Numbered from the stretch's first letter, positions 4,358-16,680 are shown. The stretch is DNA of 64,000 nucleotides from an uncultured Porphyromonadaceae bacterium (GCA_947175495.1 CAMWNB010000006.1:10304-74303); one strand, 5' to 3'. Translations and numbers: made by a program. The notes: generated by a model not told the origin, from the letters alone.

Positions 4358-4526
4358 GCATTCATATCGCCGGGAATCCCCGTCTGCTCCCCGATTCGGT
4401 TAAAGAACTTAAAAATGGTTGATAGCTAATTAAACAATATTAAAAAACGTATTTTGGTGTGATATTTTGGAGTTTTTTTCGCAAATTTGCCGAAAGAAAA
4501 CACAATAGTTGCAATCATCACACAAT

Positions 4527-5930
4527 ATGTTCCGTAAGTTTTTATTTGCTGCCTGCTTGGGTGCGGCTGCGGTCGCTTCCGCTCAGGCCCCGCTCACTCT
4601 CGACCAGTGCATAGCCGTGGCGCTGAGCGACAACCCCACAGTGCGCGTGGCCGACATGGAAATCCGACGTGTCGACTATTCGCGCGGAGAAACCCTCTCG
4701 CAGCTTCTGCCCCAGGTCAACTTTGGCGCAAACTACTCGCGCATGCTCGCCAAGCAGGTCATGTATATGAACATGGACGGCTTCGGCGGCAGCACGCCCG
4801 GCTCCGGCGACACCTCCGGCGAGCCCGACGCCGACGAGAGCAAGAGCCGCACGCCTAACGGCATCAAGATGGGCCTCGACAACAGCTATCAGATAGGCTT
4901 CTCCGCATCCGTGCCCCTCATCGCCCCGCAGCTGTGGAAATCAATGAAACTCAGCGACAGCCAGATACTCCAGTCCGTCGAGCAGGCCCGGGCCTCCCGC
5001 CTCGACCTCGTCAATCAGGTCAAGGACGCATACTACGCTCTTATGCTCGCCAAGGACTCGCGCGACGTCGTGCAGGAAAGCTACGACATGGCAGCCCTCA
5101 CCCACGAGATATACAAGAAACAACATGCCGCCGGAGCCGCCTCCGACTACGACGTGCTGCGCACATCCGTAGCCATGAAAAACATCGAGCCCGAACTCCT
5201 CCAGGCCGACATCGCCGTCAAGCAGGCGCGCCTGCAGCTGCTGGTGCTCATGGGAGCCGAGGCCGACTTCCCCCTCGAAATCAGCGGCAGGCTCAGCGAC
5301 TACGAGAGCACCATGTTCGACGAAGCCATGCTCCTCGACGACGACTACTCGCAGAACACATCCCTCGTGCAGAACGCCCTGCAGACGCGCATGCTCCGCG
5401 ACGCACTCGACGTGCAGCGCATGGCATGGCTTCCCACACTCTCCGCAAGCATCAACTACTACTGGAACAGCAACAGCAACGGCTCACCCTTCAAGAACTT
5501 CCGCTGGAGCAACTCCTCCACCTTCGGACTCTCGCTCTCGATGCCCGTTTTCACCGGCGGAGCCCGCCTCAGCCGCCAGCGACAGGCCAAAGTGCAGCTG
5601 CTCGAGAACGAGCTGCAGCGCGAGCACATCGAACACACCGTAAGCATGCAGGTCGACCTCGCCATCGACAACGTCCGCCGCAACGTCCGCCAGATTTCCT
5701 CAAGCGCCGAGAGCGTAGCCGAAGCCACACGGGCCCACGACATCATGGAACAGTCCTTTGCCATAGGCGCCGCCAGCTACCTCGACCTGCGCGACAGCGA
5801 GCTGGCCCTCACCCGCTCGCGCCTCGCCTACTATCAGAGCATCTACAACTACCTCGTGGCCAACAGCCAGCTCGAGCTGCTGCGAGGCACAGCTCCACTC
5901 TCCACCTATCAGAACATAATAAAACAATAA
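4527..5930 (+). CDS. TolC family outer-membrane efflux protein
   Basis: Signal peptide; LTLDQCIAVALSDNP; QLLPQV; GAASYLDLRDSELAL; first gene of the tripartite pump operon. Confidence 0.92.
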   Translation: MFRKFLFAACLGAAAVASAQAPLTLDQCIAVALSDNPTVRVADMEIRRVDYSRGETLSQLLPQVNFGANYSRMLAKQVMYMNMDGFGGSTPGSGDTSGEPDADESKSRTPNGIKMGLDNSYQIGFSASVPLIAPQLWKSMKLSDSQILQSVEQARASRLDLVNQVKDAYYALMLAKDSRDVVQESYDMAALTHEIYKKQHAAGAASDYDVLRTSVAMKNIEPELLQADIAVKQARLQLLVLMGAEADFPLEISGRLSDYESTMFDEAMLLDDDYSQNTSLVQNALQTRMLRDALDVQRMAWLPTLSASINYYWNSNSNGSPFKNFRWSNSSTFGLSLSMPVFTGGARLSRQRQAKVQLLENELQREHIEHTVSMQVDLAIDNVRRNVRQISSSAESVAEATRAHDIMEQSFAIGAASYLDLRDSELALTRSRLAYYQSIYNYLVANSQLELLRGTAPLSTYQNIIKQ

Positions 5931-5945
5931 GCCCGCAACCATATC

Positions 5946-6980
5946 ATGTCCCGCTCATCATCCCTTACACGATTCACATCCTGCGCCATCGCAGCCCTGG
6001 CACTCGCCGCCTGCGGCAACTCCGACGCCGACAAGGCCCCCGACACGGTCGAAGAACTCCCCGTTGTCGAAATCGACTTCGCCCGCAGCCAAGACGTGCC
6101 GCAGCAGAAAGAATACACAGCCAACGTCGAGGCCTACAACGTCAACAACATCTCACCCTCGGCGCCAAACCGCATCAAGACCATCGCAGTAGAAGTGGGC
6201 GACCCCGTGCGCCGCGGCCAGACACTCGTCACACTCGACCCCGCCAACACCGACCAGCTCAAAATCAACCTCGACCAGATTGAGCGAGAGTACAACCGCG
6301 CGCTCCGCCTCCTCGAAATAGGCGGAGGCACGCAGCAGAGCGTCGACCAGCTCAAAGCCCAGTTCGACGCCGCCCGCACACAGTACGCCAACGCCATGGA
6401 GAACACCATCCTCACATCCCCCGTCAGCGGCGTCGTCACAGCCCGCAACTACGACCCTGGCGACATGACCGCCTCCATGCCCGTGCTCACCGTCGGCCAG
6501 CTCTCGCCGGTCGTCAAGGTGATAATCAACGCCACCGAGAGCGACCTCACCAAAATCACCCGCGGCAAGCAGGTCAGCATCACATTCGACGCAATCCCCG
6601 ACGAAACCTTCGCCGGCACCGTCGCACGCGTCTACCCCTCCGTCGACCCCGCCACACGCACCTTTGAGGCCGAGATACAGATAAAGAACCCCGGCGAGCG
6701 GCTCCGCCCCGGCATGTTCGCACGCGTGGAAATCGACCACGGCGCCATCAACCGCGTCGTAGTCCCCGACCGCGCCGTCGTCAAGCAGACCGGCAGCGGC
6801 AACCGCTACGTCTACGTCCTCCACGGCGACCGCGTCAGCTACAACCGCGTGGAGCTGGGACGGCGCATCGCCGACACCTATGAGATCCTCAGCGGAGTCA
6901 GCGACGGCGACACCGTCATTGTAGCCGGGCAGAGCCGCCTCGCCGACGGCATCCCCGTAGAGATCCTTTCACGCAACTGA
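5946..6980 (+). CDS. RND efflux periplasmic adaptor (MFP), lipoprotein
   Basis: Lipobox LAAC; VEVGDPVRRGQTL, SPVSGVV, VDPATRTF, LRPGMFARV. Confidence 0.93.
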   Translation: MSRSSSLTRFTSCAIAALALAACGNSDADKAPDTVEELPVVEIDFARSQDVPQQKEYTANVEAYNVNNISPSAPNRIKTIAVEVGDPVRRGQTLVTLDPANTDQLKINLDQIEREYNRALRLLEIGGGTQQSVDQLKAQFDAARTQYANAMENTILTSPVSGVVTARNYDPGDMTASMPVLTVGQLSPVVKVIINATESDLTKITRGKQVSITFDAIPDETFAGTVARVYPSVDPATRTFEAEIQIKNPGERLRPGMFARVEIDHGAINRVVVPDRAVVKQTGSGNRYVYVLHGDRVSYNRVELGRRIADTYEILSGVSDGDTVIVAGQSRLADGIPVEILSRN

Positions 6981-7002: not shown

Positions 7003-10000
7003 ATGAGTCTATATGGCAACGCCGTGCGACGGCCCATCATGACCACACTCTGCTTCGTGGCCGTGGTGATTCTCGGACTGTTCTCGCTCAACACCCTCCC
7101 CATCGACCTCTACCCCGACGTAGAGACCAACACGCTGATGGTAATGACAAGCTACCAGGGCGCCAGCGCGCAGGACATCGAGCAGAACGTCACCCGCCCC
7201 CTCGAAAACGTGCTCAACTCCGTCAACGACCTCAAGCACATCACATCCAAGAGCCGCGAAGGCATCTCCGTCATCACCCTCGAGTTCGAGTACGGCAAAG
7301 ACATCGACGTCCTCACCAACGACGTCCGCGACAAACTCGACCTCGTCTCATCATCGCTCCCCGACGACGCCGAGAACCCCACCATCTTCAAGTTCTCCTC
7401 CGACATGATTCCCATTGTCATGCTCTCCGTGCGCGCATCCGAGAGCATGCCCGGACTCTACAAGATACTCGACGACGCCGTCGCCAACCCCCTCGCGCGC
7501 ATCAACGGCGTCGGCTCAGTCAGCATCTCCGGCGCGCCAAAGCGAGAAATACACATCTACGCCGACCCCGCGCGCCTCGAAGCATACGGACTCTCCGTCG
7601 AGCAGATAGCATCCGTCGTCGCCGCCGAAAACCGCAACATCCCCGGAGGATCCTTCGACATCGGCTCCGACACCTATTCGCTCCGCGTACAGGGCGAATT
7701 CACCGGAGCCGACCAGATGGCAAGCATCGTCGTCGGATCCCGCGAAGGCCGCAACATCTACCTCAGCGACGTCGCACGCATCGACGACTCCCTCGAAGAG
7801 CGAGCCCAGCAGACCTACAACGACGGCGAGAAAGGCGCGATGATCATCATCCAGAAACAGAGCGGAGCCAACTCCGTCGAAATCTCCAACAAGGTGCTCC
7901 GCATGCTCCCCTCCATCCAGAAGCGCCTCCCCTCCGACGTCCGCCTCGGCATCATCGTCGACACTTCCGACAACATCCGCAACACCATCGCCTCGCTCGT
8001 CGAGACCGTGCTCTACGCCCTCCTCTTCGTCGTGATCGTCGTATTCTTCTTCCTCGGACGATGGCGCGCCACACTCATCATCACCATCACCATCCCCATC
8101 TCCCTGATAGCCTCATTCATCTACCTGGCCGTCACAGGCAACTCCCTCAACATCGTCTCCCTCTCGGCCCTGTCCATCTCCATCGGCATGGTTGTCGACG
8201 ACGCCATCGTCGTGCTCGAAAACGTCACCACCCACATCGAGCGCGGATCCGACCCCCGCCAGGCAGCCGTCCACGGCACCAACGAAGTGGCCATCAGCGT
8301 CGTGGCATCCACCCTCACCCTCATCGCCGTATTCTTCCCCCTGACACTCGTCACCGGCATGACAGGCGTCCTCTTCCGCCAGCTCGGATGGATGGTCACC
8401 ATCATGATGATCATCTCCACCGTCTGCGCCCTCTCGCTCACACCCATGCTCTGCAGTCTCCTGCTGCGCCGCAACAACCGTCACGGACGCCTCTACACCC
8501 TCCTCTTCACACCCGTCAACCGAGCCCTCGACGCCTTCGACCGCTCCTACGGACGTCTCCTCCACTGGGTCGTATCCCACAAGCTCGTCACAGGCATCAT
8601 CTGCATGGCCATCTTCTTCGGCTCCCTCGGCCTGCTGCGACGCGTCGGCACCGAATTCTTCCCCATGGCCGACGACGGCCGCCTCAGCGTCAACCTCGAG
8701 CTCCCCATCGGAGCGCGCGTCGAAGTCGCCCAGGAACTCACCGCCAGGCTCGTGCGCGAATGGCGCGAGAAATACCCCGAAATCACCGTCATCAACTACA
8801 CCACCGGCTCCGCCGACAGCGACAACACATTCGCATCCCTCCGCGACAACGGCCCCCACATCATATCAATGAACATACGCCTCTCCGACCCCGGCGACCG
8901 CGACCGCGGCATCGCCGAGATCGCAGCAGCCATGCGCCGCGACCTCCGCGAATATCCGCAGTACAAGAAAGCGCAGGTACAGGTCGGCGGAGGCATGGGC
9001 ATGTCCGGACAGGCAGGCATCGACTACGAAATCTACGGCTACGACTTCGAACTCACCGACACCGTCGCACAGCGCCTCAAAGCCATGCTCGAAGCCATAC
9101 CAGGCACAGCCGACGTCTACATCTCGCGCTCCGACTATCAGCCCGAGTACCAGGTCGACTTCGACCGGGAGAAACTCGCCATCTACGGCCTCAACCTGCA
9201 GACCGCAGCCACCTACCTGCGCAACCGCATCAACGGTGCCACCGCATCGCGATTCCGCGAAGACGGCGAAGAATACGACATCAAAGTCATGTACGACCCC
9301 GCCCACCGCACATCCATCGAGGACATCGAAAACATACTCATCTACAACTCCGCCGGCAAAGGCGTCCGCCTCAGCGACGTAGGCACAGTCGTCGAACGCT
9401 CCACACCCCCCACCATCGAGCGCAAGGACCGCGAGCGCATCGTCACCGTCAAAGCCACCGTCCAGGACGTCCCCATGAGCCAAGTAGTCGAAGCATCACA
9501 GCGCCTGATCGACAAGATGGACATCCCCCAGGGAGTCACCATCTCCCTCAGCGGCAGCTACGAAGACCAGCAGGACTCATTCACCGACCTGCTCACCCTC
9601 GCCGTCCTCATCATCATACTCGTCTACATCGTCATGGCGGCACAGTTCGAGAGCTACACCTATCCCGCCATCATCATGACATCCCTCCTCTTCGCCTTCT
9701 CCGGCGTCTTCATCATCCTCTGGCTCACAGGCCACACCCTCAACGTCATGAGCATGATCGGAGCCATCATGCTCATCGGCATCGTCGTCAAAAACGGCAT
9801 CGTGCTCATCGACTACATCACCCTCAACCGCGAACGCGGAATGAGCATACGCCGAGCCGTAATCCTCGGCGGCGAATCACGCCTCCGCCCCGTCGTCATG
9901 ACCACCCTCACCACCATCCTCGGCATGGTGCCAATGGCCGTCGGCACAGGCCAGGGAGCCGAGACATGGCGCCCCATGGGCACCGCCGTCATCGGAGGCC

Positions 10001-10125
10001 TCACATTCTCAACCATCCTCACCCTCCTTTTCGTGCCGATGCTCTACTGCGTCTTCGCCTACAACGGCGTCCGCAACCGCCGCAAGAAACTACGCAAGTC
10101 GCTTCAAAAAACCGCAGAAAAATGA
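7003..10125 (+). CDS. RND efflux permease (AcrB/MdtC family)
   Basis: 1040 aa; LPIDLYP, GMVVDDAIVVLENV, GIVVKNGIVLID, RLRPVVMTTLTT. Confidence 0.95.
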   Translation: MSLYGNAVRRPIMTTLCFVAVVILGLFSLNTLPIDLYPDVETNTLMVMTSYQGASAQDIEQNVTRPLENVLNSVNDLKHITSKSREGISVITLEFEYGKDIDVLTNDVRDKLDLVSSSLPDDAENPTIFKFSSDMIPIVMLSVRASESMPGLYKILDDAVANPLARINGVGSVSISGAPKREIHIYADPARLEAYGLSVEQIASVVAAENRNIPGGSFDIGSDTYSLRVQGEFTGADQMASIVVGSREGRNIYLSDVARIDDSLEERAQQTYNDGEKGAMIIIQKQSGANSVEISNKVLRMLPSIQKRLPSDVRLGIIVDTSDNIRNTIASLVETVLYALLFVVIVVFFFLGRWRATLIITITIPISLIASFIYLAVTGNSLNIVSLSALSISIGMVVDDAIVVLENVTTHIERGSDPRQAAVHGTNEVAISVVASTLTLIAVFFPLTLVTGMTGVLFRQLGWMVTIMMIISTVCALSLTPMLCSLLLRRNNRHGRLYTLLFTPVNRALDAFDRSYGRLLHWVVSHKLVTGIICMAIFFGSLGLLRRVGTEFFPMADDGRLSVNLELPIGARVEVAQELTARLVREWREKYPEITVINYTTGSADSDNTFASLRDNGPHIISMNIRLSDPGDRDRGIAEIAAAMRRDLREYPQYKKAQVQVGGGMGMSGQAGIDYEIYGYDFELTDTVAQRLKAMLEAIPGTADVYISRSDYQPEYQVDFDREKLAIYGLNLQTAATYLRNRINGATASRFREDGEEYDIKVMYDPAHRTSIEDIENILIYNSAGKGVRLSDVGTVVERSTPPTIERKDRERIVTVKATVQDVPMSQVVEASQRLIDKMDIPQGVTISLSGSYEDQQDSFTDLLTLAVLIIILVYIVMAAQFESYTYPAIIMTSLLFAFSGVFIILWLTGHTLNVMSMIGAIMLIGIVVKNGIVLIDYITLNRERGMSIRRAVILGGESRLRPVVMTTLTTILGMVPMAVGTGQGAETWRPMGTAVIGGLTFSTILTLLFVPMLYCVFAYNGVRNRRKKLRKSLQKTAEK

Positions 10126-10415
10126 AAACCATATTCATAGCCTTCGACCAGGCCCATCGCGAGCGCATCATCGACATCCTCGACCGCAGCAGCTGTCGCG
10201 GCTTCACATCCTTCGGCACCGTCCAAGGCCGCGGCACCGTCGACGGAGAGCCGCACTACGGCTCCCACGCATGGCCATCCATGGCCTCCGCCATCCTCAC
10301 AGTCGTCCCCGACGAACGCGTCGCCCCCCTCCTCGACCGCCTCCGCGCCCTCGACGCCGAGAGCCCCCGCCTCGGCCTCCGCGCCTTCGTCTGGTCCGTC
10401 GAGCAATCCATCTGA
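10122..10415 (+). CDS. P-II-like transporter-associated protein (PG0541-type)
   Basis: ATGA overlap with the RND stop; MKTIFIAFDQ...GFT...VQGRG...GEPHYGSHAWP, 97 aa, GlnB-like pattern. Confidence 0.8.
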   Translation: MKTIFIAFDQAHRERIIDILDRSSCRGFTSFGTVQGRGTVDGEPHYGSHAWPSMASAILTVVPDERVAPLLDRLRALDAESPRLGLRAFVWSVEQSI

Positions 10416-10425
10416 CCCCGCCCCA

Positions 10426-10494
10426 AAACGGCCGCATAGCGGCCACACAATGCAGCGGCCAGTGGAGCGGCGACGTCCACGTCTCCGAATCCCC
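10426..10494. repeat. Single unit of a palindromic intergenic repeat family
   Basis: GGCCGCATAGCGGCC hairpin plus CGGCGACGTCCACGTCTCCG hairpin; homologous to units at 12778, 12978, 15325 and 15526. Confidence 0.85.
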
Positions 10495-10578
10495 CGTTCT
10501 CCACACCTGTTAGCTTGTTTTAGAAACGCAATCTTAACTGTTAAAATGATACATTTTCATAAATAATTCCAATAAATT

Positions 10579-10610
10579 GTTGCATATTAAAACTATTTAA
10601 CCTACCTTTG
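10579..10610 (+). promoter_or_regulatory. Bacteroidetes housekeeping promoter for OMP copy 1
   Basis: GTTG-20 nt-TACCTTTG (consensus TTTG-N19-21-TAnnTTTG); repeated at 13140-13171. Confidence 0.65.
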
Positions 10611-10633
10611 TCAAAAATCAATACTTTTTGACT

Positions 10634-12748
10634 ATGCACACCGCACGCATTCTTCCGGCTCTCCTCCTTTCTATTACCTCCCATGCCATCTCCGCCCAAG
10701 AACCGGCCTCCGCCCAGGAAGCCCCCGCCGACACCATAGCTGCCCGCGAGCTGAAAGAGGTGGTGGTCGAGGGAGAACGAATCATCCACAAGCCCGGATG
10801 CGACATCCTGCTGCTCTCAGAAAGAAACCGCAAGATTGGCGTAAATGCACTCGAAGCAATTTCATCCTTGAACTATTTCAAGACATCAATCGGCGACACC
10901 GAACTGATCTCCTACGACGGAAAGCCCGTATATATCACCATAAACGGCGTTCCTGCCAAGGGCGATCAACTTTGTTCCTATACCGCCGACCAGATAAAGC
11001 GCGTGGAATACTTCGCTGTCACACCTGCCGAATATATGGGATTGACCGATGGCCCGGTGATAAACGTAATCACACACCGCCCACGCACTCAGATGGTGTC
11101 GGGCTATTTCCGCGCACTTAATGCCGTGTCAACATTCTGGGGCACCAATTCGGGCTCGCTCACCTATGCCGACTCCCTCAACCGTGTACAGGCATTCTAT
11201 AATATGGGCTACACCAGCACCGGCAACGACGACATCAACAAGCACTCACGCTACGAATACGCGCCCGTCCATATCGCTGACTATCTTGAAAAGGGCAAGC
11301 TTGTGAGCGCATGGCACACACTCGACCTGGTGTATCAGCGCGACCAAGGACCACACATGTTCAACGCCACTCTATCCGGCCTCTACGAGCACTCGAAAGA
11401 ACAATACGGCGGCGTGGCCGACATCGTGAGCGGCATCACCTCCGCCGGGGGCACGAGTTATGAACTCAGCAAAGTGCACTCCAAAAGCCTTGGTTTGAGC
11501 CTCTATTATCGTTTCAAATTTCGCTCCGGCGCCAACCTGGCCTTCAATGTCACCAACTCTCTTGGCCGCTCTGGCAACGACGCCACTCTCCAGCGCGACA
11601 TCGATCCGCCCTACGACGCGCTCAACTACGATATAGCCACCGACACCCGCAACAAGATCTATGCGCTTGCCGCCTCCACTGCCTACTCTTTGCCACTCCC
11701 GAACGGCCAGTTTAGGGCGTCGTTCCGCTATCGATACAACCGATTGACGCAGACAAGCCTCGGCATAGACGCGCGCCCCGAAACACACATGACATACACC
11801 AGCCTGCAATATGTGTGGATGAAATATGGATTCTCCGTCATTCCCTCCATTGGCCTCAGCACCATTGAGAACCACACCGCCGCAGGAGAAAATACATCCG
11901 TGTCCCCCGCTCTCGGTTTATCTTCCACTTGGAACGCACAGAGCAAAGCGCTCAAAGGATGGTCCGTAAAACTGAATTATCATCTGAACAACGCCATGCT
12001 CGGAATAGGAAATCTTGCCAACAGCATCAGCTACATCGACAACGATTTTATATCTATGGGCAATCCCGACGCACGACCTTACCGCGAACACAGAGGCTCG
12101 CTGTCTGTGGAGTATATGTCGCCCGACGGCATGAACATGTTCAGGATAGGATGTTACCCCGGCTATGCACACCATCCCCTTGCGCCCGTGCTGTTGCTGG
12201 TAGACGGCGGCAACATGGCCCTCAGCTACGAAAACATCCGCTACAGCTACTCCAACGGATTCTATATGAGTGCATCTTGGTGCGTGTTGCCGTGGCTGGA
12301 ACTCTCCCCATATCTTGACTATTCATATAGCCGTAATGTGTTTCACGATGGACGCGTGTCGTTCGGCCAATGGCGTGTTGGCGGAAGTGCTTACATAACG
12401 AAGGGCAATTTCGAGTTTGGTGGCACCTTCAACCCTCCTGTAAAGCGCATAGATGGCAATCTGTTCAAGCGTGCGAGCACCCAGGCCACAGCCAGTTTGC
12501 GTTACAAACTGAAATCCTTCTCTGCAATGCTCAGTTACAGATACATGAGCCAAAACGACTATACCATAGGGCGCGCGCACGGCTTCTATTACATTCAGGA
12601 AAGTTCTCGCAAATCGTACGCCCGCCTCTTCAGCCTCACCCTCACATACTCGTTCAGCAAAGGTAAACACACCGACCACGCCGAGCGCATGCTCTACGAA
12701 AGCACCGGCGAAACGGGCCTCGGCAGCTTCAATGGCATCGTAAAATAA
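10634..12748 (+). CDS. TonB-dependent-receptor-like outer-membrane beta-barrel protein, copy 1
   Basis: Signal peptide, ELKEVVVEG TonB-box-like motif, plug-like ITINGVP...IKRVEY...VINVIT, GNPDARP, amphipathic strands ending LTYSFSKGK. Confidence 0.8.
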   Translation: MHTARILPALLLSITSHAISAQEPASAQEAPADTIAARELKEVVVEGERIIHKPGCDILLLSERNRKIGVNALEAISSLNYFKTSIGDTELISYDGKPVYITINGVPAKGDQLCSYTADQIKRVEYFAVTPAEYMGLTDGPVINVITHRPRTQMVSGYFRALNAVSTFWGTNSGSLTYADSLNRVQAFYNMGYTSTGNDDINKHSRYEYAPVHIADYLEKGKLVSAWHTLDLVYQRDQGPHMFNATLSGLYEHSKEQYGGVADIVSGITSAGGTSYELSKVHSKSLGLSLYYRFKFRSGANLAFNVTNSLGRSGNDATLQRDIDPPYDALNYDIATDTRNKIYALAASTAYSLPLPNGQFRASFRYRYNRLTQTSLGIDARPETHMTYTSLQYVWMKYGFSVIPSIGLSTIENHTAAGENTSVSPALGLSSTWNAQSKALKGWSVKLNYHLNNAMLGIGNLANSISYIDNDFISMGNPDARPYREHRGSLSVEYMSPDGMNMFRIGCYPGYAHHPLAPVLLLVDGGNMALSYENIRYSYSNGFYMSASWCVLPWLELSPYLDYSYSRNVFHDGRVSFGQWRVGGSAYITKGNFEFGGTFNPPVKRIDGNLFKRASTQATASLRYKLKSFSAMLSYRYMSQNDYTIGRAHGFYYIQESSRKSYARLFSLTLTYSFSKGKHTDHAERMLYESTGETGLGSFNGIVK

Positions 12749-12777
12749 CACCCCTCTCCGCCTCATCGCCAATGACG

Positions 12778-13052
12778 AAACGGCCGCATCGCGGCCACAC
12801 AATGCATGCGGTCAGTGGAGCGGCGACGTCCACGTCGCCGAATCCCCGCAAATCCACGTGCGCTCCACGCTCAAGAACGGCCGCATAGCGGCCACACCAA
12901 CCAATAGCCACAGGTGAGCAAGCCGCCTCAAGCGGCTCGCGCAGCCTGTGGTGTGGTCAAAGCACATCCCCGGACAGGGCCGCATCGCGGTCCTACAATG
13001 CGGGCGGCCGGTATGGCGTCCACGTCCACATCGCCGATTCCCCGCAAATCCC
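12778..13052. repeat. Composite palindromic repeat (unit-spacer-unit, BIME-like)
   Basis: Units at 12778-12855 and 12978-13052; GGCCGCATAGCGGCC at 12879-12893; CCACAGG...CCTGTGG hairpin; whole block repeated at 15325-15599. Confidence 0.85.
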
Positions 13053-13139
13053 TTTCGCTCTGCGCTTACTGGCATATTGTAAAAAAACATGCAATTACAT
13101 GTTAAAACGACATATTTTCGCGAATATTTCAAAAGAAAC

Positions 13140-13171
13140 GTTGCATATTAAAACTATTTAACCTACCTTTG
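13140..13171 (+). promoter_or_regulatory. Duplicated promoter for OMP copy 2
   Basis: Identical to 10579-10610. Confidence 0.65.
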
Positions 13172-13194
13172 TCGAAAATCAATACTTTTTGACT

Positions 13195-15295
13195 ATGCAC
13201 ACCGCACGCATTCTTCCGGCTCTCCTCCTTTCTATTACCTCCCATGCCATCTCCGCCCAAGAACCGGCCTCCGCTCAGGAAGCCCCTGCCGACACCATAG
13301 CTGCCCGCGAGCTGAAAGAGGTGGTGGTAGAGGGAGAACGAATCATCCACAAGCCCGGATGCGACATCCTGCTGCTGTCCGACCAAAACCGCAAATTCGG
13401 CGTCAACGCCCTCGAAGCCATCTCGTCGATTAACTATTTCAAGACAGCGATTGGCGACCATGACCTCACCTCCTACGACGGCCGGTCCGTGCTCATAACC
13501 ATAAACGGAGTTCCGGCAACAGGCTACGACCTCTGCACCTACTCCGCCGACGAGATAAAAAGCGTGCAATACTATGCCGTCACGCCTCCCGAATTCATGA
13601 GCGAGACAGACGGGCCCGTAATCAACGTAATCACACGCAAGCCGCGCAAACACATGGTGTCGGGCTATTTTGACCTTGCAAACGCAGTCTCCACATTGTC
13701 CGGCCGAAATTACGGCAACCTCACCTACGCCGACTCCCTCAACCGTGTGCAAGCCAACTATAGGATACAACAACTTCGGAGATGTAGAGGAGAACTCCAT
13801 ATTCCGCTATGCCCCCGACCATGTGGCTCAATATGCCAAGACCGGCAAACTCATAAGCACCTGGCATGAACTCAACCTTACCTACCAGCGCGACCAGGGC
13901 CCCCACATGTTCAACGCCACACTCTCCGGCATCTACGAACACTCCGACGAACATTCCGAAGGCACTGCCGACATCGTCGAAGGCGACGTAACAGCCGACG
14001 GTACCAGTCGCGACATCGCCAAGGCCAACGCCAAACAACTCGCTCTGAACCTCTATTATCGTCTGCAGCTCGGAGGCGGCCGCACCTTTGCCTTTACCGT
14101 GGCCAACACCCTCGGACAATCCGGCAGCGACGCCGCCCTGAGCCGATACGTCGCCCCGCCCTACGACGCGCTCAACTACGACGTTTCCTCCATCACCGAC
14201 AACAGCACATACGCCCTTGGTGCCGCCGCCGTGTTCATGATGCCGCTGCCCAACGGACAATTCTCCGCTTCGGCGCGCTACGGCTACACCCGCCTCCGGC
14301 AGACCGCCATCGGCAACACCACACACCCCTCCACGCACAATGCTTATGCCTTCGCCCAGTATGTGTGGATGAAAGGCGGATTCTACATCATCCCCTCGCT
14401 CGGACTCTCCGCCATCCGCGACTGCTTGCCCGTGGGCAACAACAACACCATTGCGCCGCTGGTCATGTTCGATGCATCATGGCGCGCGCCAAAAGGATTG
14501 CTCTACGGATGGTCGACAAGGCTCAGCTACAGCATGCCCACATACACCACGACCCTTGGCAATATGACCGACAGCTACACATACATCGACAATGGCCTCA
14601 TTGCAGCCGGCAACCCCGGCCTTAAGCCAAATCGCGCCCATCGCGGCACATTGTCGATAGATTATATGTCGCCCGACGGGCGCAACTCTTTCCGTGTCTC
14701 AACATCGCCATTCTACGCGCATAATCCGATGGAATGGACTCTTACCGACATCGACGGCATCATGGTGCGCCGTATGGAAAACATCCGCTACACCTATTCC
14801 AACGGCTTCTCCATGTCCGCCGCATGGCATGTGTTGCCATGGCTGGAACTCGCTCCCTATCTGGACTACTCTTATCGCCGCGACGTGATGTACGACCGCC
14901 GTGTCTCTTTCTCTCAATGGCGCTTGGGCGGAGGCCTCACAGTCAGCAAAGGCCATTTCGAAGCCTCGGCTTCGTTTAATCCGCCCATAAAAAGAATCAA
15001 CGGCGACTTCTTCAAGCGCGAGAGCACCCAGGCGGTAGGACGTCTGCGATATAAACTGAACAATTTCTCCGTAACATGCTATTACCGCCACTTCTCGCAA
15101 AATAACTACACTATAGGACGCTCTGCCGACTTCTCCTATAAAGTAGACACTTCGCGCAAAACATTTAATCATTATGTGGAGATAGGCCTTACCTATTCAT
15201 TCAGCAAAGGCAAGCAGATGCAGCACGACGACCCCATGCTCTACGAAAGCAGCAACGAAACAGGCCTCGGCAGCTTCAATGGCATCGTAAAATAA
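13195..15295 (+). pseudogene. Beta-barrel OMP copy 2, frameshifted at about 13762
   Basis: Track ORF 13189..13869 aligns to copy 1 up to ADSLNRVQANY; track ORF 13670..15295 resumes the alignment from GYNNFG through to the shared C-terminus ETGLGSFNGIVK. Confidence 0.8.
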
Positions 15296-15324
15296 CACCC
15301 CTCTCCGCCTCATCGCCAATGACG

Positions 15325-15599
15325 AAACGGCCGCATCGCGGTCCTACAATGCGGGCGGTCAGTGGGGCGGCGACGTCCACGTCGCCGATTCCCCGCAAAT
15401 CCCCGCTCGCTCCCCGCTCAAGAAGGGCCGCATAGCGGCCATACCCACCAATAGCCACAGGTGAGCAAGCCGCCGCAAGCGGCTCGCGCAGCCTGTGGTG
15501 TGGTCAAAAGCACATCCCCGGACAGGGCCGCATCGCGGTCCTACAATGCATCGGCCGGTATGGCGCCCACGTCCACGCCGCCGAATCCCCGCAAATCCC
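15325..15599. repeat. Second composite palindromic repeat block
   Basis: Closely similar to 12778-13052; units at 15325-15402 and 15526-15599. Confidence 0.85.
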
Positions 15600-15673
15600 A
15601 TTTTTCCGCACTTAATGGCTCAAAAATAGATTAACCTATTAATTTACTGATGTTTAGCGTCTTTATTGGCAAT

Positions 15674-15689
15674 TGTTCCACGTGGAACA
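15674..15689. promoter_or_regulatory. parS: parS centromere-like site
   Basis: Perfect 16-bp palindrome TGTTCCACGTGGAACA, matching the bacterial parS consensus (TGTTTCACGTGAAACA type). Confidence 0.8.
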
Positions 15690-15703
15690 TATGTCATCTC
15701 CAT

Positions 15704-15735
15704 ATTGGGCGTATCGCGGATTATTGCTAATTTTG
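15704..15735 (+). promoter_or_regulatory. Promoter for the EamA pair
   Basis: ATTG-20 nt-TAATTTTG, 21 nt upstream of the ATG. Confidence 0.55.
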
Positions 15736-15756
15736 CAGGCGAAAAACAGATAGGTA

Positions 15757-16680
15757 ATGGATATTTCTAAGATTAAGGGCCACGGCGCCATGATGGGTGC
15801 CGAAATGCTGTGGGGCGCAGGTGCGCCGCTCGGCAAGTTCATCCTTGCCGGAAGCGTGTCGCCCCTGCTGCTCACCGACTGCCGCATCATCGGCACAGCG
15901 GCGCTGTTCTGGCTGCTGTCGCTGTTCACGCCCTTGGAGCATGTGTCGCCGAAGGACCTCCTGCACATCTTCTTCGCATCTCTGCTGGGCCTTGTGTTCA
16001 ACCAGTGCCTGTTCCTCTTCGGCCTCAGCCACACATCGCCCATCAACGCCTCCATCATCACCACGAGCCTGCCGATAGTGACAATGGTGATGGCGGCGAT
16101 ATTCCTGCGCGAGCCCGTGACGAAGCTGAAAGTGGGAGGCGTATTCCTTGGCGCTATCGGCGCCCTCATCCTCATCGTCAGCGGCTCGGCGGCCGCAGGC
16201 ACCGGGTCCGCCCTGGGCGACGGCATGGTGCTGCTGGCGCAGATCAGCTTCAGCTGCTACCTCGTGTTCTTCAAGCGGCTGACAGCCAAATACCGTCCCG
16301 TCACGCTTATGAAGTGGATGTTCACCTACGCCTCCATCTGCATCGTCCCGTTCAGCTACGGCGAGTGGGCCGCCGCCGCCCACGCAGGCATCACGCCCGC
16401 GGAGTGGTGGGCCGTGGCAGTCTTCGTGCTGGGGCCCACATTCCTCAGCTATCTGCTGCTGCCCGTGGGACAGAAGAACCTGCGGCCCACTGTCACGTCG
16501 ATGTACAACTATGTGCAGCCCATCGTGGCTTCCGTCGTGGCCGTGTGGGTCGGCATGGACCGCTTCACGCCCGGCAAGGCCGTGGCCGTCGTGCTGGTGT
16601 TTGCCGGCGTCTTCCTTGTGAGCAAAAGCAAAAGCCGCGCCGACATGCAGCGCGAGGCGAGAAGCAAGAAACGAGCATGA
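15757..16680 (+). CDS. EamA/DMT family transporter
   Basis: About 10 TM helices in two repeats; GLSHTSPINASII, YNYVQPIVA. Confidence 0.92.
   Translation: MDISKIKGHGAMMGAEMLWGAGAPLGKFILAGSVSPLLLTDCRIIGTAALFWLLSLFTPLEHVSPKDLLHIFFASLLGLVFNQCLFLFGLSHTSPINASIITTSLPIVTMVMAAIFLREPVTKLKVGGVFLGAIGALILIVSGSAAAGTGSALGDGMVLLAQISFSCYLVFFKRLTAKYRPVTLMKWMFTYASICIVPFSYGEWAAAAHAGITPAEWWAVAVFVLGPTFLSYLLLPVGQKNLRPTVTSMYNYVQPIVASVVAVWVGMDRFTPGKAVAVVLVFAGVFLVSKSKSRADMQREARSKKRA

Follow-up and report, generated by a model that had tools for sequence, protein, structure and literature searches.

Two tandem outer-membrane barrel genes with near-identical ends and divergent interiors in an uncultured Porphyromonadaceae bacterium

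Introduction

In the SusC/SusD-family shufflons and invertible promoters of Bacteroides fragilis, inverted repeats and a site-specific invertase swap one promoter and 5′ end between oppositely oriented genes, and in Neisseria pilE/pilS and Borrelia vlsE a single expression site is accompanied by many promoterless partial cassettes. The babA, babB, and babC genes of Helicobacter pylori have identical N- and C-terminal regions around a divergent middle, together with chimeric genes, variable gene content, and out-of-frame copies; their intragenomic gene conversion has been placed near the 5′ end (∼60–240 bp from the start) and in the 3′ part (PMC4552749). Here, we describe a tandem pair of outer-membrane protein (OMP) genes, gene A and gene B, that lie in a 64,000-nt stretch of DNA from an uncultured Porphyromonadaceae bacterium (the window; assembly GCA_947175495.1, contig CAMWNB010000006.1, here C6, positions 10304–74303). 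The genome comprises 2.34 Mb in 90 contigs, and all coordinates below are those of the window. The two genes are nearly the same at both ends and deeply different between them, a pattern that probably reflects RecA-type gene conversion between tandem paralogues and, in different strains, the loss of a copy or its inactivation.

Database matches to the window are named Muribaculaceae, a dominant and poorly studied group of mouse-gut bacteria in which little is known about strain variation of surface transporters. Our literature search on gene conversion or concerted evolution of OMPs in Muribaculaceae or Bacteroides found nothing relevant.

Results

Identity along the two units

We compared the two units along their whole length (Table 1). 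The 5′ handles are identical at 233 of 237 positions (98.3%), and the four differences lie at 10613, 10714, 10726, and 10768 (13174, 13275, 13287, and 13329 in unit 2). The 3′ handles are identical at all 79 positions. Between the handles, the interiors (10816–12715 and 13377–15262) agree in 1201 of 1900 aligned columns, which corresponds to 63% identity in nucleotides and 54% in amino acids. At the interior rate of identity, a match of 233/237 would be expected by chance with a probability of ∼1e-40 and a match of 79/79 with a probability of ∼2e-16.

The onset of the 5′ handle is sharp. Identity begins at the putative −33 promoter box, and the 79–87 nt upstream are only ∼60% identical (49/81 aligned columns between 10500–10578 of up1 and 13061–13139 of up2); the handle ends after codon 61 (…DILLLS). 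On the 3′ side, similarity extends past the 79 nt at 91% over the whole 260-nt palindromic spacer, to 13055 and 15605, and the two annotated spacers are 91–92% identical. The handles are direct repeats, and both copies of the 5′ handle carry promoter-like boxes and start codons. Read against the known Bacteroidota consensus, each unit appears to have its own Bacteroidota-type promoter, with a GTTG box at −33 and a TACCTTTG box at −7 (10579–10610 and 13140–13171).

A preliminary description of this stretch had reported four differences in the 5′ 237 nt, an identical 79-nt 3′ end, and interiors sharing about half of their amino acids, and all three statements hold, with the addition that the 3′ similarity runs on through the spacer. 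It had also given each unit its own promoter and the same palindromic brackets. The promoters agree with the boxes that we read from the sequence and the brackets are indeed shared, but they are not specific to the locus, being dispersed genome-wide.

Two old interior lineages

The interiors fall into two lineages. Lineage A contains window copy 1, P0001, P0002/P0165, P0014/P0194, and P0169; lineage B contains window copy 2, P0003, P0004, and P0005/P0181. Nucleotide identity of the interiors is 83–92% within a lineage and 57–72% between A and B. Within a lineage, the ratio of nonsynonymous to synonymous divergence (dN/dS) of the interior is 0.15–0.17, which does not support diversifying selection there. 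Between the A and B interiors, dS is saturated at 1.5 and dN is 0.35. Both lineages are old and under purifying selection.

Ends homogenized within each genome

The handles of the window have a dS of 0.087 and a dN of 0. With synonymous divergence this low, and with a promoter that is likewise identical although it is noncoding, selection at the protein level cannot explain the identity of the handles. Between organisms, handle dS (1.0–1.5) exceeds interior dS (0.45–0.5), and within a genome the handles are near-identical. In a tree of the first ∼63 codons, window A, window B, and the related contig L006 group together (support 99/98), and the A gene of a second organism (organism 2) groups with the B gene of that organism (path 0.013). 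In a tree of the next 86 codons, by contrast, window A groups with organism-2 A (94/95), and all B genes group together (91/94). Ends group by organism and interiors by lineage.

In organism 2, the two genes are neighbors and B precedes A: contig L026 runs from the 3′ end of a B gene across a 430-nt spacer containing REP-like (repetitive extragenic palindromic) units into the start of an A gene. The promoter and 5′ part of this A gene match the B gene of contig L017 at 264 of 272 positions, and identity then falls to 57–70% at the same alignment position as the 5′ boundary in the window. Between the B gene of L026 and the A gene of contig L014, 3′ identity starts ∼30 nt before the stop codon, as in the window. 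In a third organism, compared at the protein level, the A-lineage protein P0169 and the B-lineage protein P0004 share an MHLTR… N terminus and a …GLGDFNGVAK C terminus. The corresponding C-terminal peptide is …GLGDFNGVVK in the organism-2 pair and GLGSFNGIVK in the window pair, where it is specific to the window organism and common to A and B.

The 3′ junction offers a derived character. In relatives it consists of CACCCCTTTCCG and then, 12–13 nt after the stop, the ATG of a Peptidase_C39 ATP-binding cassette (ABC) exporter (L014, L017, L023/L024); in L016 and L026, the exporter is reduced to a remnant of its first codons. Both window copies have the same replacement sequence and a REP unit in place of the exporter start. 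As judged from these sequences, the two lineages cannot have gained this derived junction independently. The homogenization of the ends that the preliminary description had proposed is thus borne out, and placed after the divergence of the interiors, by three lines of evidence: the dS of 0.09 in the handle against 1.5 in the interior, the incongruent trees, and the shared derived 3′ junction.

The exporter itself lies at L014:1735–1932 and L023:2106–4304, with remnants at L016:3609–3650 and L026:504–540. We rejected it as a linked partner of the locus, as it is absent from the window, and used it only as a marker of the junction; its position in the relatives nevertheless makes a functional link of the OMP family to peptide export possible.

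Tandem arrangement and variation among samples

Sequencing run X5, which belongs to the study that also yielded the best holders of the locus, contains up1, the copy-1 interior, a link from this interior through the 3′ handle and REPb to mid, a piece joining REPc, up2, and the 5′ handle, the copy-2 interior, and both flanks. Of its eight longest pieces, at depths of 2.3–5.1x, seven agree fully with the window; the exception, which runs from REPc through up2 into the 5′ handle, carries letters of the copy-1 type at 13275 and 13287 and one extra A. The depth of up2 in X5 equals that of up1 and the flanks, and up2 is absent from runs X1–X4. This equal depth favors a tandem, because two single-copy strains would give flanks at twice the depth of the interiors. 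Moreover, both products occur together in two assemblies, on 80-kb and 147.7-kb contigs, and in organism 2 the two genes are neighbors on contig L026, with each product on about 91–115 contigs. The tandem is very likely real.

Other runs differ in content. X3 has copy 1 and both flanks without differences (∼5x) and neither copy 2 nor up2. X4 has the B interior at 20–70x and no A interior, up1, or up2. X1 and X2 have both interiors, with B intact, and in X1 a single handle unitig with copy-1-type letters branches into both. Copy content thus appears to vary among samples, with A-only (X3), B-only (X4), and two-interior (X1, X2, and X5) runs, as seen in short contigs that break at repeats.

A 1664-nt contig of X2, at about twice the depth, links another signal peptide (…ACCALTTTVA/SAQEPASAQE) at 10690 (= 13251) to the distal portion of the handle and continues into both interiors, and several further signal-peptide types occur on B-lineage genes (P0180, P0205). 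The very 5′ end is thus mosaic in its turn.

Recurrent inactivation of one copy

Copy 2 has lost 5 nt after 13759, namely one ATAGG of ATAGGATAGG, relative to the intact 701-aa P0003/P0178 from other samples; runs X1 and X2 carry the extra ATAGG of the intact B gene. A 147,689-nt contig of a second assembly encodes the copy-1 product together with the same truncated copy-2 product (P0177, 516 aa). The frameshift is thus no isolated error of one assembly, even if the reads behind the two assemblies may be related. Thus, the locus does hold two beta-barrel genes, as first described, but the second is not intact and is split into two open reading frames (ORFs).

In organism 2, the lineage-A gene is the one disrupted. 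It is split into 148-aa and 550-aa products on about 91–176 contigs of public assemblies by an element inserted after codon 148, between direct copies of CCCGGTGATAAACGT (L026:1353–1396 end, L014:1–44 start). This element is bounded by AAGTGCAAAA-type terminal inverted repeats. Two other members of the family are also pseudogenes, one with a C5 run shortened to C4 (L025:1447–3554) and one with an internal deletion of ∼245 codons (L027:1308–2540). Loss of function is frequent in this OMP family. A simple-sequence tract of the kind used in reversible phase variation was not found at the copy-2 site, which has only a two-unit ATAGG duplication, in one state per run.

Repeats and copy number of the handles

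The palindromic spacer belongs to a composite REP–mid–REP repeat with 196-nt spacing, of which ∼30–40 related copies are dispersed over the genome. Of these, 14/38 lie within 400 nt of a contig end, and related spacer copies are found on at least 10 other contigs, often at their ends. Because so many copies sit at contig ends, the repeats evidently break the assembly. The spacer hairpins are stable (z −2 to −4), and the OMP locus contains all 7 core repeat motifs of the 64-kb window.

There are exactly two copies of the 5′ handle in the 2.34-Mb genome, where no further handle copies or cassettes were found. No second tandem was detected among species representatives; 40 relatives and 401 Muribaculaceae genomes gave only single copies. 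A pattern scan of species genomes in GTDB, based on the family alignment, returned one other locus, again a single copy (G022/L015), and an exact 41-mer of the 5′ handle had 0 matches in JGI metagenome contigs. The neighboring genes that we examined include no recombinase, invertase, integrase, or reverse transcriptase, and an Rfam search of 10100–15900 gave no match, with no known leader or riboswitch in the handle. Given the direct repeats, the separate promoters, the lack of a nearby recombinase, the presence of just two copies of the handles, and the absence of an Rfam element, general homologous recombination is the best-supported mechanism.

Protein family and predicted fold

Both genes match PF14905 (OMP_b-brl_3), copy 1 at 36.9 bits and the 3′ ORF of copy 2 at 39.9 bits (cut-off 27). 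Residues 1–200 have no match to Plug (PF07715) or TonB_dep_Rec in Pfam even at E 10, the copy proteins match no family in NCBIfam, and a sequence-profile search of the PDB found nothing significant, with only PirA at E 0.14. An AlphaFold2 model built with 70 relatives was confident, with a predicted local distance difference test score (pLDDT) of 89.7 and a predicted template modeling score (pTM) of 0.83. It has a plug-like alpha/beta part at residues ∼50–147 followed by a continuous series of long strands, which fits the plug-in-barrel architecture of the TonB-dependent transporter superfamily (a roughly 22-stranded barrel). In a Foldseek search of the PDB, the top 50 matches were all TonB-dependent transporters (E 1e-17 to 1e-14, probability 1.0, template modeling score ∼0.5), led by Cir, BtuB, PfeA, and FepA.

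The coding part of the 5′ handle covers the signal peptide, followed by a Pro/Ala/Glu linker, the TonB-box-like motif ELKEVVVEG, and the first strands of the plug. This motif, at residues 38–46, is nearly invariant across the family. From the model, the proteins are putative TonB-coupled importers. They resemble known TonB-dependent transporters (E. coli Cir, BtuB, and FepA; P. aeruginosa PfeA; B. thetaiotaomicron BtuB1) in the predicted N-terminal plug inside a large barrel and in a TonB-box-like motif after the signal peptide, and distant relatives of ∼770 aa add a CarboxypepD_reg domain, which is typical of Bacteroidota TonB-dependent transporters. They differ from these transporters in matching only PF14905, in having no PDB relative by sequence, and in the lack of a SusD-like or other partner lipoprotein gene adjoining the locus. 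The family is small, with 247 cluster representatives at E<=1e-3 among 1.8 billion, and patchy: 11 of the 401 Muribaculaceae genomes have one distant copy each, in differing genomic contexts.

Genomic setting

The neighbors of the locus encode a resistance-nodulation-division (RND) pump, a P-II-like protein, EamA, queA, truB, uppP, and ftsX; the EamA transporter gene lies downstream of unit 2 and is followed by queA on the minus strand. Contigs L006 and L007 also contain the pairing of the AcrB-type pump with the 97-aa P-II-like ORF. Because an RND pump lies upstream in both the window and G022, we considered whether this synteny is conserved and rejected the idea: the AcrB proteins are 28% identical, and other family members have unrelated contexts. 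At ∼15600–16000, the GC skew changes sign and the cumulative skew has its minimum directly after unit 2, so that the tandem adjoins the skew switch.

Table 1. Features of the tandem locus and its upstream neighborhood, in window coordinates (REP, repetitive extragenic palindromic; UTR, untranslated region)
Feature	Position	Strand	Remarks
RND efflux operon, outer-membrane factor	4509–5930		
RND efflux operon, membrane-fusion protein	5946–6980		
RND efflux operon, AcrB-type pump	7003–10125		
P-II-like ORF, 97 aa	10122–10415		overlaps the end of the AcrB-type pump gene
REPa, REP-like palindromic unit between the RND-pump operon and unit 1	10421–10494		repeat families D3/D4/D6; two hairpins, −27 kcal/mol, z −2.5
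up1, upstream region of unit 1	10495–10578	+	not homogenized with up2 in this strain
5′ handle, unit 1	10579–10815	+	promoter-like GTTG/TACCTTTG boxes, 5′ UTR, ATG at 10634, 61 codons
Gene A (copy 1)	10634–12748	+	intact, 704 aa, lineage A; PF14905 E 3e-9; relatives P0001, P0002, P0169
3′ handle, unit 1	12716–12794	+	last 10 sense codons, stop codon, 46 nt of flank
Spacer	12774–13052		REPb 12774–12856; 'mid' hairpin element 12860–12965; REPc 12965–13052
up2, upstream region of unit 2	13053–13139	+	∼60% identical to up1
5′ handle, unit 2	13140–13376	+	
Gene B (copy 2)	13195–15295	+	lineage B, frameshifted; ORFs 13189–13869 and 13670–15295
Frameshift site	13755–13769	+	ATAGGATAGG reduced to ATAGG; from alignment with L006
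3′ handle, unit 2	15263–15341	+	
REPb′-mid′-REPc′ spacer	15321–15599		followed by an AT-rich gap, then the EamA gene

Discussion

The explanation that we favor, and consider probable, starts from two anciently diverged head-to-tail paralogues, A and B, each with its own promoter. RecA-type recombination would repeatedly copy short tracts between the units wherever similarity still allows pairing. One tract would cover the promoter and the first ∼61 codons, and the other would cover the last ∼11 codons, the 3′ flank, and the repeat spacer. The divergent interiors (63% in nucleotides) would block extension of the tracts and so give sharp, inherited boundaries; within a genome, the ends would undergo concerted evolution, and each interior would keep to its own lineage. 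The direct repeats and the surrounding REPs could further serve as substrates of unequal crossing-over, leading to samples with a single interior, and the frequent inactivation of one copy is independent of this, as with the 5-nt deletion in B here and the inserted element in A of organism 2. The B-type 5′ end was presumably copied onto A, and the single-copy strains would have arisen by deletion.

Several points weigh against this explanation. The mechanism was deduced and conversion was not directly seen, and the conserved boundary could come from selection for a shared N-terminal module, not only from a mismatch barrier. Organisms 2 and 3 were put together from contigs of different samples, and the population evidence consists entirely of assemblies of short reads or of k=31 Logan contigs, which are interrupted at repeats, with low and noisy depths; no single molecule spanning both units was seen in the short-read data. 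The handle depth in X1 is not additive. In X2, one 1.66-kb upstream contig at a depth of 22.9 leads into both interiors (17.5 and 13.1), which fits alleles at one locus better than a tandem. Finally, in L006 and L007 a B interior is preceded by AcrB, REP, mid, REPc, a region resembling up1, and a handle of the copy-1 type. These contigs may be a recombinant, a longer upstream conversion tract, or an assembler jump across repeats, and we did not count them as proof because the metagenome-assembled genome (MAG) that includes L007 also holds a copy-1 interior contig, L013.

The X2 contig, with its near-summed depth, is the best support for a reading that we regard as unlikely, in which A and B are deeply diverged alleles of one locus, the shared ends are their common flanks, and the tandem of the window is a rare recombinant or a chimeric assembly of two strains. 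Runs X3 and X4, which appear to have A only and B only, and the single X1 handle that branches to both interiors would agree with it, and linkage across REPs, where contigs break, is weak. However, two alleles would not yield the equal depth of up1, up2, both interiors, and both flanks in X5, nor a distinct up2 linked to REPc and the copy-2 handle; the 80-kb and 147.7-kb contigs carry both genes, and in the other organism B and A are adjacent on one contig, L026, with about 91–115 contigs per product. A purely technical origin, with near-identical ends created by consensus collapse of two loci or strains, is extremely unlikely. The genome is a 90-contig MAG with repeats at many contig ends, but the four handle differences are preserved, and the same pattern appears in independent runs, assemblies, and other organisms. 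If the genes had arisen by a recent duplication and their interiors had then diverged very quickly under positive selection, with no divergence yet at the ends, the same profile of similar ends and a dissimilar middle would be expected. This model is almost certainly wrong, and we exclude it because interior orthologues elsewhere are 83–92% identical within a lineage with a low dN/dS (∼0.16) and the A–B dS is saturated; the trees, too, unite the A genes of different organisms, and likewise their B genes. The preliminary description had also argued that simple ageing of a duplication misfits the pattern.

Conversion between tandem paralogues may also be set against readings in which the ends have a role in exchange. 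The handles could act as landing pads, with a promoter, signal-peptide, and TonB-box module on the 5′ side and the last codons and flank on the 3′ side. Ordinary homologous recombination, including that with DNA of other strains, would then exchange or discard whole barrel cassettes, each cell would express A or B, and phage or bacteriocin pressure would keep both types and the handles. This is an improbable reading; if it were true, the inactivation of a different copy in each organism (B here, A in organism 2) and the samples with a single interior would be the footprint of either/or selection. A programmed cassette exchange or phase variation, with a fixed expression handle and alternative barrels or with ATAGG as an on/off switch, is very unlikely. 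An inactivated copy is present in each organism examined (the window B gene lacking 5 nt of the pentanucleotide duplication, the insertion in organism-2 A, and the C5-to-C4 change in L025), copy content appears to differ among samples, and the fold is that of classical phage and colicin receptors. Nevertheless, both units are full length with their own promoters, exchange between direct repeats would cause deletion instead of switching, the vicinity contains no invertase, integrase, or reverse transcriptase, ATAGG is present in only two units without a long tract or a mixed state within a run, and the genome has no extra cassettes or handles. A programmed mechanism or antigenic switch is thus not supported, and neither is the variable array envisaged in the preliminary description; the array amounts to two units, with the 5′ handle present twice in the genome and single distant copies elsewhere in the 401 Muribaculaceae genomes. 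The role in antigenic, phage-receptor, or substrate variation that was also put forward there is hypothetical.

Gene conversion between the tandem paralogues, if correct, would mean that an ordinary process can, for long periods, preserve identity between two receptor genes at their regulatory and export end without making the barrels alike. Which copy is present or intact appears to vary among strains, and the locus provides a defined gene pair for asking whether alternative TonB-type receptors trade off under phage or bacteriocin pressure. It also carries a warning for the annotation of MAGs, in which repeats of this kind break assemblies and can create or hide chimeric genes.

Among known systems, silent-cassette loci such as Neisseria pilE/pilS and Borrelia vlsE resemble the window in having conserved handles around variable sequence and copying by homologous recombination, but the window has two complete genes and no further handle copies, and it is not a silent-cassette locus. 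With the B. fragilis shufflons, it shares Bacteroidota outer-membrane transporter paralogues that have common 5′ coding ends, which in the shufflons vary in expression. Unlike a shufflon, it has direct repeats, a separate promoter for each gene, and no invertase in the neighborhood. The closest known case is that of the H. pylori OMP paralogues babA/babB/babC (and homA/homB), with which the locus has in common near-identical ends, a divergent middle, and conflicting trees for ends and middle. However, the bab genes sit at separate chromosomal loci, whereas the window genes are adjacent and in direct orientation; bab is turned on and off by a CT dinucleotide tract, whereas the window has a two-unit ATAGG duplication without evidence of reversible switching; the Bab proteins are adhesins of another fold, whereas the window genes encode plug-plus-barrel proteins like TonB-dependent transporters in a commensal member of the Bacteroidota; and the coding part of the homogenized 3′ tract is very short in the window (33 nt). 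The locus reveals no new mechanism beyond these systems; what it adds to them is boundaries that are conserved across three organisms and the alternate inactivation of the two copies.

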